Shown here one piece after another: positions 26,523 to 63,477 of a DNA stretch of 64,000 nucleotides. The stretch spans positions 960,001-1,024,000 of the forward strand of contig CBDFMQ010000002.1 in the NCBI GenBank assembly GCA_965249725.1. Direction: 5' to 3'. The DNA comes from Longimicrobiales bacterium. Its GTDB lineage: Bacteria; Gemmatimonadota; Gemmatimonadetes; Longimicrobiales; Gaopeijiaceae. The stretch's first letter is position 1, and the number at the start of each line of letters is the position of its first letter. Below the pieces are notes generated by a model, which saw only the letters and a program-made list of their open reading frames with translations, made no database searches and was not told where the DNA came from. A program made the translations under genes and the position numbers.

Positions 26523-27650
26523 TTAGAGGCCCCAGACCTCGCTATCCGGGGCGAACGTCATCCAGGCGAACCAGAATGACACATAGGCGTCTCGGACCTG
26601 CTGGAGCGCCTTCCCCTCCATCGCTCCCGAGAGTCCTGCACCGGCCAGGCTCCATTCGCTGCCCGTCTCTACATCGTAGTAGCCGCCGTCTCGGACCTCG
26701 AACGTCAGGCTCTGGCCGTCGACGGAATTCCAGAACGCGAGGGCCGACTGGGCGTCACCACTCCAGAACACCACGACGGGGTCTCCCTCGACCGTCTCGT
26801 GAACGACTTCCGGCTGATCCAGATGGAGGAGGCCGAAGGGAAAGACGATGCCTCCGCCTGATGCGAAGGGAATGCCCAGTACGCGTTCCTTCGGAGGACG
26901 ACGGTCGTCGAACGCGGGGTTGGGATAGATGGTCCCCTCGTGTAGACGCTCGTAGGCGCCATACGGGTACGCCTGATAATCACGATCGAACCCCGTGGTG
27001 CCGGAGATCACTTTCGTCTGCGGGTGAAGCCTCACCCAGGTGCCCCACTCCACCTCGACCGACGGGTACATCTCCAAAGCATGCCCGTCCCGGGGTCCGC
27101 ACCGTGCCTGCCGCATCATCTGCGGCCACAGCGAGGTCTCTCCACCGCCGGTTCGGTCGTACATGATCAGGTTGTTGTTGAACAGCAGGCCCGACACCCC
27201 GAACTCGACCCCTTCCGCCGAGGTCCGATCGAAGGCGATGCTCGATCCCGTGAGGGGACAGTACGTCACAGAGAGTTGAGGCTCGAGGTTGTTGAAGTTC
27301 ACGATCTCGTGCCACCAGAGAATGTTGTGGGGAATCGCGATGTACTCCCCGTTCACCTCGATTCCGATGATCCGGTCGTCGGGTCTCAGGTACGTAGCGT
27401 CGGAGTCCGTCGACTGGACAAGCACGGGATCCGAGAGCGCGGGAATGCCGTCCCTACCGACGCCGCCGGAGTAGATCTGCCCGTCGGGAATGCTGCACAG
27501 CCCCACCTCCTCGTACCGGACCCCCAAGGTCCCCGGGAAGAACGGTTCGTCTCCGCCGGAACACGCGAGGGCCACCATCGTGCTCGCGAGAACCACGACG
27601 CGGCGCAAACGGCGGAGTGGTGAAGACTTCGTTGTGGGACGAACCGCCAT
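26523..27650 (-). CDS. DUF3179-family lipoprotein
   Basis: DGIPAL, WHEIVN, VTYCPLTGS, FGVSGLL..NLIMYDR, FWFAW; start uncertain. Confidence 0.85.
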   Translation of the reverse strand: MAVRPTTKSSPLRRLRRVVVLASTMVALACSGGDEPFFPGTLGVRYEEVGLCSIPDGQIYSGGVGRDGIPALSDPVLVQSTDSDATYLRPDDRIIGIEVNGEYIAIPHNILWWHEIVNFNNLEPQLSVTYCPLTGSSIAFDRTSAEGVEFGVSGLLFNNNLIMYDRTGGGETSLWPQMMRQARCGPRDGHALEMYPSVEVEWGTWVRLHPQTKVISGTTGFDRDYQAYPYGAYERLHEGTIYPNPAFDDRRPPKERVLGIPFASGGGIVFPFGLLHLDQPEVVHETVEGDPVVVFWSGDAQSALAFWNSVDGQSLTFEVRDGGYYDVETGSEWSLAGAGLSGAMEGKALQQVRDAYVSFWFAWMTFAPDSEVWGL

Positions 27651-27767
27651 CGACTCGACCTGGATCAGAAGGTTGGCGTCAGGACTCTCTGAAACGAACC
27701 CGTCCACCCCTTGATCCAGTTCCCATCCACTGACCAACTCCCGAGCGCCAACCCCAGGGTCCGTCGG

Positions 27768-28183
27768 CTATGCGCCGTATGCCGACCCGCTGTCGGGCTC
27801 GATCCAACGACCCAGCTCGTCCTTGACGGCCTCCACCAGTTGCCCGAAGTCGGGAGGTTTCTCCAGATAGCGCCGCGCACCGAGGGAGTACGCGCGTCGG
27901 GCGAGTTTGGGATCGGAGGACGCCGTGAAAATGATCACCGGAATCTGGGAGAGCGCTCATCGTGCACGAGCCATTCCAGGATTTCCATACCGTCGGCATC
28001 AGGCAACGACAGGTCTAGTGTAATCAGGGCCGGAGCCGGCTCTTCCACCAGATAGGCACGTGCTTCTTCGGCACTGAACGCCACTTCGACCTGAGCGTAG
28101 GAGAGTCCTGTCGAGAAGACCGCCTCGATCAGGAGTACGTGATCAGGGTTGTCCTCAATCACGAGAATGGTCGCGTGGGTCAT
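27768..28183 (-). pseudogene. Single-domain response regulator with 1-nt frameshift
   Basis: ILVIEDNPD, LDLSLPDADG, then IPVIIFTAS...YLEKP in another frame after ~27952. Confidence 0.85.
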
Positions 28184-28322
28184 GGGGACCGGGTGTCCTC
28201 GGTTGGAGCCCATCCCCGGGGGGGCCTACTTTAAAGCTAGTAACCACCGGCTGTGGGCGCCAAAGGTCTCTTCGGCCACTGCGTCCACCGTCCGAACGCT
28301 CCACATACCGTACTGGAAGACG

Positions 28323-28568
28323 ATGAGCCCATACATATCGCAGGATCGTCGTCGTGAGATCGACGACGAAGGCGCGGCACCGAGCAACACCGGAGAACTC
28401 ACCTACGCGTTGTATCGGGCTTGTATCGACTACCTGCCCTCTGAGGCCCGCTACGCCGACTACGCGGAGGTCATGGCCGCCCTCGAATGCGCGAAGCTGG
28501 AGTTCTATCGCCGGCGAGTGGCTCCATACGAGGACACGAAGATCGCCGAGAGCGGCGACGTGGTCTGA
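28323..28568 (+). CDS. DUF6899-like small protein
   Basis: PYI...GELTY...ALECAKLEFYRR.VAPYED.KI...GDV pattern. Confidence 0.7.
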   Translation: MSPYISQDRRREIDDEGAAPSNTGELTYALYRACIDYLPSEARYADYAEVMAALECAKLEFYRRRVAPYEDTKIAESGDVV

Positions 28569-28684
28569 CCCCATGCTGTAACCCCCGCCGGACATGGCAA
28601 TAGCGGTTTGAGGCTTGGCGGAGAACCCAGTACTTTCCGGCCGGACTCTGTGGTAGAAGAGATGACCTTCCTTAAGGAGTCGAG

Positions 28685-29365
28685 TTGAGATCCCTCCTGT
28701 CCTTCTCGTCCGTCGCAGTTGTGACGGCACTCACGTTCGGTTGTGGAGGTGGGTCCGACCCGACCACGGTGATCACCCCGCCCCCTCAGGCGGACGATGC
28801 GCCGCCACCACCCCCCCCGACAAATATCATTGCTGCGGATTCGTTTGACGTAATCCCGTCGGGCGCGGTGGACTTCGACGATCCCGCTTTTCTGATATCG
28901 CGTGAGAAGCTAGGGACCGTGCCTGCCGGGGTGGTGCCGGGTGCAGGAAAGTTGCTGGTCCTCTCGTTGAGAGACCTGAATGATCCGAACCTAGTCTGTG
29001 GTGGGGGGAGCTGGAGTGATGCATGCTCCAGCATGGTTGTACTGGAGCAGGAAGGGATCGAACCCGGGCGGCGTCCCGGAAGGGTCGAGTTAAGCCTTAT
29101 GAGTGGGCGGAAGACCTGGTACCCACAGGCAGACACGGTCAGCTTGGCTGAGGAGCCTCCGCCCGGCTGACCCGTTTTCCAAGTGGGCGGGTCCGCCCAT
29201 CGGTGGAGCGTGTTGCTCGATGACGACATCAGGCCGGGCACGGACTTCGTCGTACGTGTGACGGTCGGAAAGGCTACTGGCGCCCAGACCAAGGTCGGGT
29301 GGCAGCTCTCGATCGAAGAGCCGACGGTGGCGGCCGCGCCGGGCGAGGGTCACGACGACTGTTAG
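28685..29365 (+). CDS. Hypothetical lipoprotein, candidate selenoprotein (in-frame TGA at 29168-29170)
   Basis: AAGGAG RBS, FGC lipobox; the frame stays open 64 codons after the TGA; SECIS-like hairpin follows. Confidence 0.6.
29171..29210 (+). promoter_or_regulatory. Candidate bacterial SECIS element
   Basis: GTGGGCG-GGTC-CGCCCAT hairpin starting 13 nt after TGA, lower stem TTCCA/TGGAG. Confidence 0.55.
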
Positions 29366-29381
29366 AGCTTTCTCTTGTCAA

Positions 29382-29454
29382 AGCGGGCGACCGGACTCGA
29401 ACCGGCGACCCTCAGCTTGGGAAGCTGATGCTCTACCAACTGAGCTACGCCCGC
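29382..29454 (-). tRNA. tRNA-Gly(CCC)
   Basis: GCGGGCG acceptor stem, CTTCCCAAG anticodon loop, GGTTCGAGTCC T arm; CCA not encoded. Confidence 0.97.
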
Positions 29455-59320: not shown

Positions 59321-60225
59321 TGCCAACTTAGGTGAGACACGGAACGAGTAAAGAATTAGAGTAGGGCGAAGGCAGAGAAACCGAGGATGCTGAGACACCG
59401 AGAGAGAATGGAAGAGAATGGAATCGCCCCACTAACCTGGGAGGGTAAGCGAAGCGCGGCAGCTGCTCCGGACGCGGAGGTGGTAGATAAGCCGACGCGC
59501 CGACGGTTTAGTCCGTCGTACAAGCTGCGGGTCGTCGAAGAAGCGGACCGGTGCACGGAGCCGGGAGAGGTAGGGCGACTCCTGCGACGGGAGGGCTTGT
59601 ACTCGTCGCACCTGACGACATGGCGCAAGGCGGTGCGGAGTGGGTCGCTGAGAGCGCTGTCGAAGAGACGAGGTCGAAAGCCGAGCGAACGGAATCCGCT
59701 GGAGGGGAAAGTGCGCAAGCTGGAGCGCGAGAACACTCGCCTGGAGAAGGAACTCGAGAAGGCGCGCCTGATCCTCGACGTCCAGGGAAAAGTTGCAGGG
59801 CTGCTGGGATTGAGCCTCGAGGACGGGACGAACTCGTGAAGGCGGCCGAGGCGCTGGCCACGTACGTAGGGGTAAAGCCCGCGTGCGATGCGCTCAGGGT
59901 CGCCCGAGCCACGTTCTATCGTCGTCGGAGGCCATCGACCGGGCATCAGCAGCCCCGCCCGACCCCAGCCCGTGCCTTGAGCGAGAAGGAACGAGACAAG
60001 GTCTTCGACACGCTGTGTTCGGAGCGATTCGTGGACCGGTCCCCGGCCGAGGTTGTGGCGACCCTGCTCGACGAAGACGTCTACCTGTGCAGCGAACGTA
60101 CGATGTATCGCGTTCTGGCCTCCCAAGTGCCAGTTCGAGAGCGCCGAGCGCAGCGGAGTCATCCCGAATACCAGAAACCCGAGTTGATGGCGACGGGCCC
60201 GGGCCAGGTCTGGTCCTGGGATATC
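59321..60225 (+). mobile_element. IS3-family element, 3'-truncated copy
   Basis: IRL TGCCAACTTAGGTGAGACAC; orfA 59387-59839; orfB from 59836 cut after WSWDI. Confidence 0.9.
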
Positions 60226-60237
60226 CTTGGTCACCCC

Positions 60238-61621
60238 GAGTTGTGTGTAAAAGTGAGAGGAAGCTCCTCGATGCTTCTGTTAGGCTGCCTTGGCGACCTC
60301 CTTCGGTTCGAGAAGCGTGAGATCCAGGTAGCGACGTTCGCTCCAGACCGCAGTAGTCCTTAGAGCAACCGCAGTGATGAGGCGGAGCGCGCTGGCTCGG
60401 TCGGGGAAGGCGCCGGCGCTCCGGATCCGACGCTTGATCTCGGTGTGCAGGCGCTCGAGGCTGTTCGTGGTGCGCAGTCGGGCCCAGTGGGGCTCGGGGA
60501 ACGCGTAGAACTGGGTGGCGGCCGTGAAGCCCCGCTCGAGCACCCTCATTGCCTCGGGGAGTTCCTTGTGCCAGCGCGCCGTGATCTCGGCCAGGCGCTT
60601 CTTCGACTCAGCGAGCCCGGGGGCCCGGAAGACGGCGGCAACCTCGCGCGCCACACGCTTGCGCAGGCGATGCGGGACCTTGGCCAGCACGTTGCGTTGC
60701 AGGTGGACAGTACAGCGCTGGCGGCGCACCTCGGGCAGGAAGCGGCGCACCGCGGCTGCCAGGCCCGCGTGCTCATCCGCGATCACGAGCTGGACGCCGC
60801 TGAGACCACGCTCCAGGAGTTGCTCGAGGAGCTCCGACCAGCTGTTCTCCGATTCCTCAGGGCCCAGCGTGATGCCCAGGAGCCGGCGGTGGCCGTCCGG
60901 GCCCACGGCGTAGGCCACGAGCGCGCTCACGTTCTCGACCTTTCGGGCCCAGCGGGCATCGAGGAACGTCGCGTCCAGGTACAGGTAGGGGTGGGCCCCC
61001 TCGATGGGTGCACTCCGCAGCGTTTGCACGCCCTCGTCGAGCCGCTTCGCGACCCGGCTCACCGTCGAGCGTCCCACGCGCTCACCCATGAGTGCCTCGG
61101 TCACGTCGCCCATCTTGCGCTGCGACACGCCGCTCACGTAGGCCTCCACCATCATCGCATCGACTTCTTCACTCCTGCGCTGGTAGCGACCCATCACGTC
61201 GGCGGGCGAGCCGCCTTCCCGGCTGCGCGGGACCGTCACGTCGATCTGACCCAGGCTCGTAAGCAGGCGCCTCAGATACGTCCCGTTCCTGTGGCCCTTC
61301 CGGCTGCCGACCCGCTCGAATCGTCGCGCTCCGACCATCGCCTTCAACTCCTCCTCCAACACCATCTCGAGCGTTAGCCGGATCGCGCCCTGAAACAGCG
61401 ACTTCAAATCCTGACGCAGCTCGTCTTGCGTGGCTGGCTCAACTTCGACCATCTTTTCCATGAGGAAGCTCCTTGTTCCGGTTCCGACCTGCTCACGCAG
61501 GCCGGACTCCCGGGTTCATGTGATGATGAACAATTCACAAGGAGCTTCCTCTTTCTTTTCCGGGCTGTCCACCCTCCTCGGACGCCCTCACCCCCTTTTA
61601 CACAATCTTAGTGACACTACC
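60238..61621 (-). mobile_element. IS256-family element
   Basis: Ends share TGTGTAAAA in inverted orientation; outer end GGTAGTGTCAC; encodes transposase. Confidence 0.88.
60280..61461 (-). CDS. IS256-family transposase
   Basis: RNG, VPRSR, LYLDAT, QRCTVH, LRTTNSLERL..EIKRR. Confidence 0.95.
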   Translation of the reverse strand: MEKMVEVEPATQDELRQDLKSLFQGAIRLTLEMVLEEELKAMVGARRFERVGSRKGHRNGTYLRRLLTSLGQIDVTVPRSREGGSPADVMGRYQRRSEEVDAMMVEAYVSGVSQRKMGDVTEALMGERVGRSTVSRVAKRLDEGVQTLRSAPIEGAHPYLYLDATFLDARWARKVENVSALVAYAVGPDGHRRLLGITLGPEESENSWSELLEQLLERGLSGVQLVIADEHAGLAAAVRRFLPEVRRQRCTVHLQRNVLAKVPHRLRKRVAREVAAVFRAPGLAESKKRLAEITARWHKELPEAMRVLERGFTAATQFYAFPEPHWARLRTTNSLERLHTEIKRRIRSAGAFPDRASALRLITAVALRTTAVWSERRYLDLTLLEPKEVAKAA

Positions 61622-61919
61622 GTCCTTGGTCACCCCTACTACGCCAGCGGCTCGGTGATCTCCGCGTGTGGAGGCAGCCGATGACGTCAACAACGTCGAC
61701 TTCTAGTCGGTAGTAAAGAGCGTAGGGGAAGCGGCCGAGGAGAGCCCGTCGCAGCCCGACCGCGATCTCAGGGAAGGCCTCAGGAAGCTCGGAGACAAGA
61801 CCGATGATCTGCTCGAGCGATCGGACGAAGTCATCGCCGAGGCCCGGATGTTGCCCATCGTACCACTCTCGGGCCAACACCACGTCCGAGGCCGCCTCCG
61901 TGCGGAAGCGGACGAGCAC
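61617..61919 (-). CDS. RelE/ParE-family toxin
   Basis: A.EWY....PGLG.DF, RRALLGRFPYALYY, CLHTRRSP..W. Confidence 0.85.
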   Translation of the reverse strand: MLVRFRTEAASDVVLAREWYDGQHPGLGDDFVRSLEQIIGLVSELPEAFPEIAVGLRRALLGRFPYALYYRLEVDVVDVIGCLHTRRSPSRWRSRGDQGR

Positions 61920-61921
61920 AG

Positions 61922-62137
61922 CTACCCAGAGTCTCTCAGGCGGACCCGGACCTCTTCCCACGGAACGTATTCCGCATCGGTGTCAGCCAGTCGACGCTCG
62001 AGTTCCTGGACATGCCATTCGGGGATCGCGACATCTTCGGGGCTTGCCGCGACCGCATCCCAGGCCTCCCCGAGGAGTTCAATGCGCTCGTCGGGAGGCA
62101 GTCGGAGGATCTCAGCTAGGAGAGCTTGCTTCGTCAT
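61922..62137 (-). CDS. Addiction module antitoxin (TIGR02574-like)
   Basis: LPPDERIELL...WD, WHVQELERR, VPWEEV. Confidence 0.85.
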   Translation of the reverse strand: MTKQALLAEILRLPPDERIELLGEAWDAVAASPEDVAIPEWHVQELERRLADTDAEYVPWEEVRVRLRDSG

Positions 62138-62195
62138 GCTCTCAATCTCGACTGTCGACCCCGCCCACGGCAATGTTCGCATGGGTCGAGGTGAG

Positions 62196-62295
62196 GTCTA
62201 ACGGATCGCGATTCTACTGCGCGATCAAGATGCCGACCGCAAGCGAAGCGCGCGAGCCGGATGCCTACCGCGTCAGTAGCAATCGCTTGTTAGAG
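62196..62295 (-). other. Integron attC site (100 bp, intact)
   Basis: Minus strand CTCTAAC-AAGCG-ATTGCTAC...GTAGAAT-CGCGATCC-GTTAGAC. Confidence 0.9.
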
Positions 62296-62436
62296 CGCAC
62301 CCCGCTTGGGTCGGTACTCCACATGATCCAGCCCATCGAAATCTGCATCTTGAGTCCAGAGAGTGGCTGCGTAGCTGAGCGCTGACGCGTAGATGATGCT
62401 GTCCGCTAGAGGGAGCCCATGACTCGCACCGGAGCC
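62290..62436 (-). pseudogene. 3' remnant of VapC/PIN toxin
   Basis: HGLPLADSIIYASALSYAATLWTQDADFDGLDHVEYRPKRGAL*; stop lies inside attC R''; cut by IS3. Confidence 0.8.
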
Positions 62437-62469
62437 TGTCAACGCCAGTGAGACACTCTTGGGAATTAA

Positions 62470-63477
62470 TTAGAGAGCAATCTCCTGTGTCGTGAGGGAG
62501 GGGGTTGGAGGATTGATCCAGACGGCCTCCGGGAGCGGTTTGGGCTTCGGCTCACCGGAGACGAAGCGGTCGGGATGAGCGGCCCAGGCCTCGCGTAGCA
62601 CGGCCTGCCTGCCGGCGATGACCTGATCTGCATTCCCGAAGTGGACCTGTTCGGGGGTCAGCATCGAGATACCACCATGGCGGTGCTCGGCGTTGTACCA
62701 GCGGAAGAACGAGCGACAGAAGGTTTTGGCCTGGCCCTGATCCTCGAACCGTCCAGGAAACGAGGGATGGTACTTCAAGGTCTTGAACTGGGCTTCGGAG
62801 AACGGATTGTCATCCGACACCTGAGGTCGGCTCAGCGAGCGGGTCACCCCGAGATCGGCGAGGAGCTGAGCCGTGCATTGGCTCGTCATCGGAGCTCCTC
62901 GATCCGAGTGCAAGGTCAGGACCTGGGGCTGGACGCCATGCTTCAGGCAACTCTGCTGGATCAGGCGCCCGGCCAAGGCCGAGCTCTCCCGATCCGCCAC
63001 CATCCATCCCACGATGTAGCGGCTGAAGATGTCCATGATAACGTAGAGGTAGAAGTAGCTCCACTTCCTCGGCCCCAGCAGCCGTGTGATATCCCAGGAC
63101 CAGACCTGGCCCGGGCCCGTCGCCATCAACTCGGGTTTCTGGTATTCGGGATGACTCCGCTGCGCTCGGCGCTCTCGAACTGGCACTTGGGAGGCCAGAA
63201 CGCGATACATCGTACGTTCGCTGCACAGGTAGACGTCTTCGTCGAGCAGGGTCGCCACAACCTCGGCCGGGGACCGGTCCACGAATCGCTCCGAACACAG
63301 CGTGTCGAAGACCTTGTCTCGTTCCTTCTCGCTCAAGGCACGGGCTGGGGTCGGGCGGGGCTGCTGATGCCCGGTCGATGGCCTCCGACGACGATAGAAC
63401 GTGGCTCGGGCGACCCTGAGCGCATCGCACGCGGGCTTTACCCCTACGTACGTGGCCAGCGCCTCGGCCGCCTTCAC
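62470..63477 (-). CDS. IS3-family transposase OrfB (DDE)
   Basis: WSWDIT, DIFSR, LHSDRG, DNPFSEAQFKTLK. Confidence 0.93.
   Translation of the reverse strand: MKAAEALATYVGVKPACDALRVARATFYRRRRPSTGHQQPRPTPARALSEKERDKVFDTLCSERFVDRSPAEVVATLLDEDVYLCSERTMYRVLASQVPVRERRAQRSHPEYQKPELMATGPGQVWSWDITRLLGPRKWSYFYLYVIMDIFSRYIVGWMVADRESSALAGRLIQQSCLKHGVQPQVLTLHSDRGAPMTSQCTAQLLADLGVTRSLSRPQVSDDNPFSEAQFKTLKYHPSFPGRFEDQGQAKTFCRSFFRWYNAEHRHGGISMLTPEQVHFGNADQVIAGRQAVLREAWAAHPDRFVSGEPKPKPLPEAVWINPPTPSLTTQEIAL

Follow-up and report, generated by a model that had tools for sequence, protein, structure and literature searches.

A Predicted All-Beta Family of Exported Selenoproteins from Gemmatimonadota, Very Probably Uncatalogued

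A 64,000-nucleotide stretch of a Longimicrobiales genome (the window) contains an open reading frame that stops at a TGA and resumes in the same frame beyond it, raising the question of whether this codon ends a small lipoprotein or inserts selenocysteine (Sec) into a larger one, and of what a Sec at that site might do. On the forward strand, the first part of the frame runs from a TTG start at 28,685 to the TGA at 29,168–29,170 and encodes 161 residues ending in EEPPPG; as the first-pass annotation had read it, 64 further codons follow in frame up to a TAG (29,363–29,365), giving a coding sequence (CDS) of 28,685–29,365 for a 226-residue protein in which the TGA is codon 162. A Shine-Dalgarno-like AAGGAG (28,674–28,679, forward strand) can be read 5 nt ahead of the start. 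Hexamer scoring with a genome-trained model gives the frame past the TGA a coding score of +0.37, and the other five frames −1.15 to +0.07. A promoter scan returned no sites, and tRNA was the sole match in an Rfam scan.

Assembly error at the TGA was rejected; contigs from sequencing runs of four studies show no other letter there. Genome-wide reassignment of TGA was likewise rejected: neighbouring genes end in TGA, so the genetic code is table 11, and the sole tRNA with a TCA anticodon detected in the host genome (G000) at the default threshold scores as tRNA-Sec. The same facts argue against insertion of some other residue, such as Cys or Trp, at this codon. We consider that reading very improbable, along with the alternative that the TGA truly terminates translation, whether between two genes or in a nonsense allele. 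A true stop does find some echo in the databases, which hold the two halves as separate proteins. In the first protein search, 10 of 12 proteins (the window's own included) end in PPPG, at the TGA. When all searches are pooled, the family profile matches 51 of 54 database proteins. By our reading, 32 of the 51 stop one residue short of the Sec column, 9 read through, 6 diverge earlier, and 4 are orphaned C-terminal halves. A Pro-rich false match (in G056) and two proteins with unrelated repeats (P0042 and P0043) were set aside.

At the DNA level the picture is uniform. A scan of 29 loci found TGA at the column in 31 of 32 motif-anchored copies, and one copy missed by the pattern (L035) also has TGA, making 32 of 33 overall; the exception (L041) still has the TGA, but a −1 and a +1 indel on either side put it out of frame. 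Many loci are duplicates, leaving 18 distinct 60-nt segments, all with TGA. Homologues range from about 27% to 80% identity to the query, and the alignment is collinear past the TGA. The stop at this one fixed column is always TGA and never TAA or TAG in intact copies, which argues against a true stop, as does the alignment of Cys with it in five clusters; a decayed copy (G125), lost after the first Cys and with its TAG off the Sec column, was left out of the counts. These data agree with the criteria for a new selenoprotein family given in bioRxiv 10.1101/2022.07.06.499078, namely at least 10 examples (here 18 distinct segments), a universal TGA, and similarity through the site.

The nine read-through proteins show what else the column accepts. 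Six of them, in five clusters (P0026, P0027, P0034, P0035, and P0053/P0058), have Cys, with the codon TGC read in the DNA for P0026; the remaining three, counted from the conserved Val, have Thr (P0030), Ser (P0052), or His (P0060). The first-pass annotation had proposed checking whether homologues keep TGA or Cys and stay collinear, which these copies do, and none of the outcomes it named as refuting (absence of Sec machinery, or a non-Cys sense codon or TAA/TAG at the column with no conserved hairpin) was borne out. In one genome (G749), a TGA copy that has the hairpin coexists with a TGC copy (P0026) that lacks it, and this pair is a natural control for Sec/Cys exchange. The family tree puts the Cys forms at three separate points among the TGA forms; no direction of change is claimed.

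The family is rare, occurring in 9 of 314 genomes of the host's taxonomic family and in 2 of 401 in a sample of the phylum, the host included. No paralogue was found in the host genome, the plasmid collection gave no match to the Cys homologue P0026, and no viral contig had the TGA-plus-hairpin pattern. Several copies have individual histories. Tandem paralogue pairs occur at L028/L054, L044, and L055, both copies having TGA and the same hairpin; L055 is titled Proteobacteria, its genes are nearly identical to those at a Gemmatimonadetes locus, which may reflect a binning error, and selB was not found in its metagenome-assembled genome (MAG). At L041 (640–700) the indels let the frame bypass the TGA with the hairpin kept, by assembly error or a real escape from Sec. 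Three frameshifted database proteins (P0051, P0049, and P0050) have out-of-frame tails resembling the TGA-plus-hairpin segment in another frame; P0051 groups with a divergent clade, hinting that the same selenocysteine insertion sequence (SECIS) extends there. At L026/L050 (G035), a homologue without its first ~70 residues continues, in frame, an unrelated sequence upstream of it, TGA and hairpin being intact; this could be a deletion or a misassembly. The upstream sequence has no Pfam match and resembles a piece of a TonB-dependent receptor.

Just past the TGA lies a bacterial-type SECIS hairpin (29,177–29,208, forward strand). Every element claimed for it was found in place: a 7-bp stem, GTGGGCG/CGCCCAT (29,183–29,200), whose first base is the 13th after the TGA; a GGTC loop (29,190–29,193) 19 nt after the TGA; and a lower stem, TTCCA/TGGAG, pairing 29,177–29,181 with 29,204–29,208. 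The published bacterial SECIS model has four criteria (PMC13188914, section 5), and by hand check the query hairpin agrees with all four as that section gives them (GGUC loop, 7-bp stem, 19 nt, and a folding energy of −16.7 kcal/mol). The proposed likeness to Escherichia coli fdhF is also borne out, the K-12 gene having GGTC 18 nt after its TGA, as does the host's own formate-dehydrogenase-like gene, against 19 nt here. The fdhF stem differs in having a bulged base where the present one has a perfect GC-rich upper stem of 5–7 bp, and the two proteins are unrelated.

Taken singly, the hairpin is no more stable than shuffled sequences (z −0.6 to −1.7), a point on the side of a true stop, and in a 63-nt window a competing fold beats it. 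Genome-wide, GGTC-capped stems of at least 6 bp placed 16–24 nt after a stop, with open frames on both sides of the site, follow 12 of 15,849 TGA, 2 of 7,670 TAG, and 0 of 2,121 TAA sites; eight of the 12 TGA sites are one repeated insertion sequence. The strong evidence for recoding is therefore not this single hairpin; it is conservation. Retrieval of the loci used peptide patterns; these constrain the residues and leave the codons free. Among the 18 distinct segments, the hairpin codons are nearly invariant (GTG 17/17, GGC 17/17, GGG 17/18, TCC 17/17, and GCC 16/17), in contrast to the equally conserved Pro after the TGA, which uses three codons, and Leu178, which uses five. In a pairwise comparison of 17 aligned genes over 59 conserved four- or sixfold-degenerate columns, the synonymous-difference fractions of codons 167–171 are 0, 0, 0.12, 0, and 0.23, ranking 1–4 and 8 for lowest difference; typical values elsewhere are about 0.6–0.7. 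In the consensus structure GGUC is closed by a 5-bp stem, and GGGCG/CGCCC is the sole conserved core; neither the outer stem pairs nor the lower stem is conserved among homologues, and compensatory change is seen at two stem pairs, both from L031 alone, in which the loop-closing G-C pair is broken. The hairpin is thus conserved, as the first-pass test required, through near-zero synonymous change and a retained 5-bp core.

The machinery for Sec insertion is present in the host genome (95.8% complete) outside the window, where the first-pass annotation had suggested looking for it: selA (E 3e-168), selB (E 6e-97), and selD (E 3e-112) all exceed curated cut-offs, and the tRNA-Sec scores 68 bits against a cut-off of 47. 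The selD gene has its own in-frame TGA, and four further genes of known selenoprotein type contain one: a formate-dehydrogenase-like gene (C2:161968-163239), two of the AhpC/TSA family (C3:2223595-2223996 and C1:708966-709358), and one of DUF3179 (C2:136667-137320, reverse strand). The last belongs to a known selenoprotein family and has its TGA in a UxxC motif followed by a GGTC-capped hairpin; it is one of nine DUF3179 genes in the host, and the copy in the window (26,523–27,737) has no internal stop. Also noted in this genome were 19 tRNA genes that lie clustered on the same strand within ~2.8 kb (C3:1903222-1906030). Among the 11 genomes bearing TGA copies, 10 have selA or selB; selB was not found in G776, a 1.9-Mb MAG with TGA copies. 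This co-occurrence adds little, because selA is present in 112 of 151 genomes of the host's taxonomic family anyway. On the combined strength of the fixed column, its Cys counterparts, and the frozen hairpin, we infer that the TGA at 29,168 is almost certainly read as Sec162.

The N-terminus of the predicted protein is a lipoprotein-type signal peptide (28,685–28,744, forward strand), recognized by a hydrophobic stretch and a [GAS]C pattern, with Cys20 (28,742–28,744) as the putative lipidation site. The query's T-F-G-C lipobox is slightly off consensus; of 40 family proteins selected because their N-terminus is intact, 39 show a lipobox-like signal by a simple pattern, which upholds the earlier prediction of an exported lipoprotein. 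A Pro-rich, low-complexity tether (about residues 21–46; 28,745–28,822), without secondary structure in the model, leads to a predicted 11-strand, all-beta, jelly-roll-like domain (about residues 47–212; 28,823–29,320). The AF2 models (mean pLDDT 83.8 and 85.6; pTM 0.75 and 0.84) contain no helix of four or more residues. Four of the predicted strands are encoded past the TGA, so the 161-residue product would be an incomplete fold; a true stop would cut the beta-sandwich before them. Two larger lipoproteins also have the domain, as their C-terminal module: P0062 (386 residues) ends at the Sec column, and P0052 (473 residues) has Ser there and a weak DUF4382 match (E 0.03).

The first-pass annotation proposed the upstream pair, Cys105 and Cys114 (LVC...DAC; 28,997–29,026, forward strand), as possible partners of the Sec. 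This did not stand: the pair is invariant in 23 of 23 alignment rows, including a form without Sec or Cys at the column, and is present in the other two such forms. Since both residues persist in Sec-less forms, they probably pair with each other in a structural disulfide. The C-terminal Cys226 (29,360–29,362, forward strand) is the better candidate, as it tracks the Sec column: among the 16 distinct TGA copies whose tail is complete, 10 have a tail Cys (eight of them 64 codons after the U), as do all five Cys clusters, but none of the three non-Cys forms does. Five TGA copies of one clade lack it and have H-x-H tails instead, to be counted as one event given the single clade; G210 has TGA, yet neither tail Cys nor His tail. 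A His near the tail Cys is not universal. If the strands follow canonical jelly-roll order, the strand list by itself would place residue 162 at the pole from which the tail exits, opposite the 105–114 loop; AF2 tail pLDDT is 49–72. From these patterns, Cys226 is probably the partner of Sec162.

What such a pair might do was considered in three ways. Sec162 may be a redox catalyst outside the cytoplasm, acting on peroxides or disulfides, with Cys226 resolving a selenenylsulfide. A distal Cys on a flexible tail that tracks the Sec/Cys column suits this, and section 7 of PMC13188914 holds that uncharacterised selenoproteins are mostly probably redox proteins. Against it, the all-beta models contain no thioredoxin-like fold and the query has neither CxxU nor UxxC, so that it falls outside the thioredoxin-fold group; the His-tailed clade and G210 retain Sec without a resolving Cys; and no conserved reductant partner lies nearby in 14 loci. 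We judge such catalysis possible but somewhat doubtful. Alternatively, the selenium–sulfur bond could have a purely structural part, stapling the tail to a beta-sandwich that binds ligands, such as a carbohydrate- or peptide-binding module. Non-catalytic jelly-roll modules from proteases and glycoside hydrolases come nearest in fold (Z 5–7), the domain is fused in larger lipoproteins (P0052 and P0062), and three forms do without both Sec/Cys and tail Cys, all of which a staple would allow. Retention of UGA and a frozen hairpin over 27–80% identity though Cys is tolerated suggests instead that selenium chemistry matters, and the tail lacks a Cys for such a bond in 6 of 16 TGA copies; a purely structural bond is unlikely.

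The reading we prefer is soft-metal binding by Sec together with the tail Cys or His. A His can replace a metal ligand; it cannot replace a resolving Cys. What tips the proposed role toward metal is the presence of His in the tails of one clade and, in P0060, at the Sec column. The case stays weak given the single origin of the His clade and the lack of a conserved metal-handling neighbour, and with no conserved neighbours at the 14 loci, no transporter or metal operon backs it. We therefore put soft-metal binding at a little short of an even chance. In the corresponding mechanism, SelB on the GGUC-capped hairpin 19 nt downstream would bring Sec-tRNA to UGA162, yielding the 226-residue protein; this would be exported by its lipoprotein signal and anchored at Cys20, the Pro-rich tether holding the domain out. 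The soluble part would be one beta-sandwich closed by the Cys105–Cys114 disulfide. Sec162 would lie just ahead of a core strand, and the flexible tail may bring Cys226, or the His-x-His of one clade, to it, so that outside the cytoplasm a site of Se plus S or N could bind ions of soft metals (Cu(I), Hg, or Ag type).

The gene is the only occupant of an 809-bp accessory islet (28,571–29,379) between a DUF6899 gene (28,149–28,568, forward strand), which is not conserved beside homologues, and tRNA-Gly(CCC) (29,382–29,454, reverse strand), whose 3′ end the islet abuts. The 809 bases are skipped in related-strain contigs from runs X3 and X7; the site is empty in a genome of the same genus (G093), and in G035 it holds a different insert of ~1.1 kb, that genome's own homologue lying elsewhere. 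No integrase was found within the insert. Single small genes for exported proteins thus insert repeatedly at this spot (L083 and L084), a hotspot flanked by the DUF6899 gene and the 3′ end of tRNA-Gly. A conserved operon was rejected: no neighbour recurs at 14 loci save in duplicates of one region, and a PpoB2 copper-chaperone gene (near L054) and a MerR gene (near L055) each occur at a single locus. Toward the end of the window (about 59,900–63,400) are multi-copy insertion sequences with two transposase-like ORFs and a partial inverted copy; from their motifs we take the two ORFs to be IS3-like and IS256-like. Tentatively, the family may be an undescribed all-beta one in which a mobile tail, through a Cys or His 64 residues away, clamps the Sec of an exported beta-sandwich, forming a surface site for soft-metal capture, and which would spread as a one-gene islet and as a module of larger lipoproteins.

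The first-pass annotation recognized no selenoprotein family in this protein, and the comparison with catalogued families agrees. None of 30 members matches a family in Pfam or NCBIfam (June 2026; NCBIfam release 20.0) at E 0.01, the query (P0001) matches none at E 0.1, and PHROGs gave no match. New bacterial selenoprotein families are reported regularly, 119 being listed in 2026 (PMC13188914, Table 1), and none of these fits by name, motif, or model, where a few rows cite CDD or PANTHER models and the scan covered Pfam and NCBIfam. Section 7 of PMC13326102 treats known selenoprotein families only. A literature word search also found none; words cannot match sequence, and a groundwater deep-Sep survey (ref 66 of PMC13188914), a paper on ‘novel selenoprotein neighborhoods,’ and BSepDB Table S2 could list it. 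The family thus very probably is uncatalogued. It adds a selenoprotein family cut at TGA in the databases (32 of 51 relatives) from Gemmatimonadota, a phylum for which the literature search found no selenoproteome paper. Sec, Cys, His, Ser, and Thr all occur naturally at its site, and one genome has Sec and Cys paralogues together, which offers a ready comparison of the benefit of selenium outside the cytoplasm.

Among the closest parallels in biology are SaoX, SaoB, and SaoC, described in bioRxiv 10.1101/2022.07.06.499078, which are likewise exported or lipoprotein selenoproteins known from TGA-truncated database entries, and whose authors propose that converging Cys and Sec side chains may form a metal site. 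SaoX and SaoB have ABC substrate-binding folds, whereas the present protein is predicted to be all-beta; the three Sao genes lie in a conserved nine-gene neighbourhood, whereas the lipoprotein gene here stands alone without conserved neighbours, and no NCBIfam model matches its product. A similar-looking P-G-U motif occurs in the VPGUxxT thioredoxin-like selenoprotein (NF041383; PMC13188914, Table 1), but the present protein has no NCBIfam match and no thioredoxin fold in its model, and the G before the U is not conserved. In overall topology the domain is like jelly-roll modules (TPP II domain 3lxu, subtilase/furin C-terminal domains, CBMs, GOLD, and PirA), the best match having Z 6.9 with an rmsd of 3.8 Å over 111 residues and 9% identity. 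With the best Z values at 6.8–6.9, below 8, and no Foldseek match at E 0.001, this likeness is one of shared arrangement only, and weak matches do not show that the fold is new. The best E in a sequence search of the PDB was 0.16, and the match to copper-binding CorA (4bz4; E 0.01, TM 0.26–0.31) is not significant. The proposed design of the Sec site matches none of the short Sec motifs of the families in Table 1 of PMC13188914. As new families appear regularly, the recoding is unsurprising; it is canonical, and the novelty is in fold and site, which are unusual among catalogued families (the hypothetical ones compared by name, motif, and model only). Characterised selenoproteins are mostly thioredoxin-like according to PMC13188914, and the present family contrasts with that norm in that its members are predicted to be exported all-beta lipoproteins whose Sec probably has its partner far along the chain.
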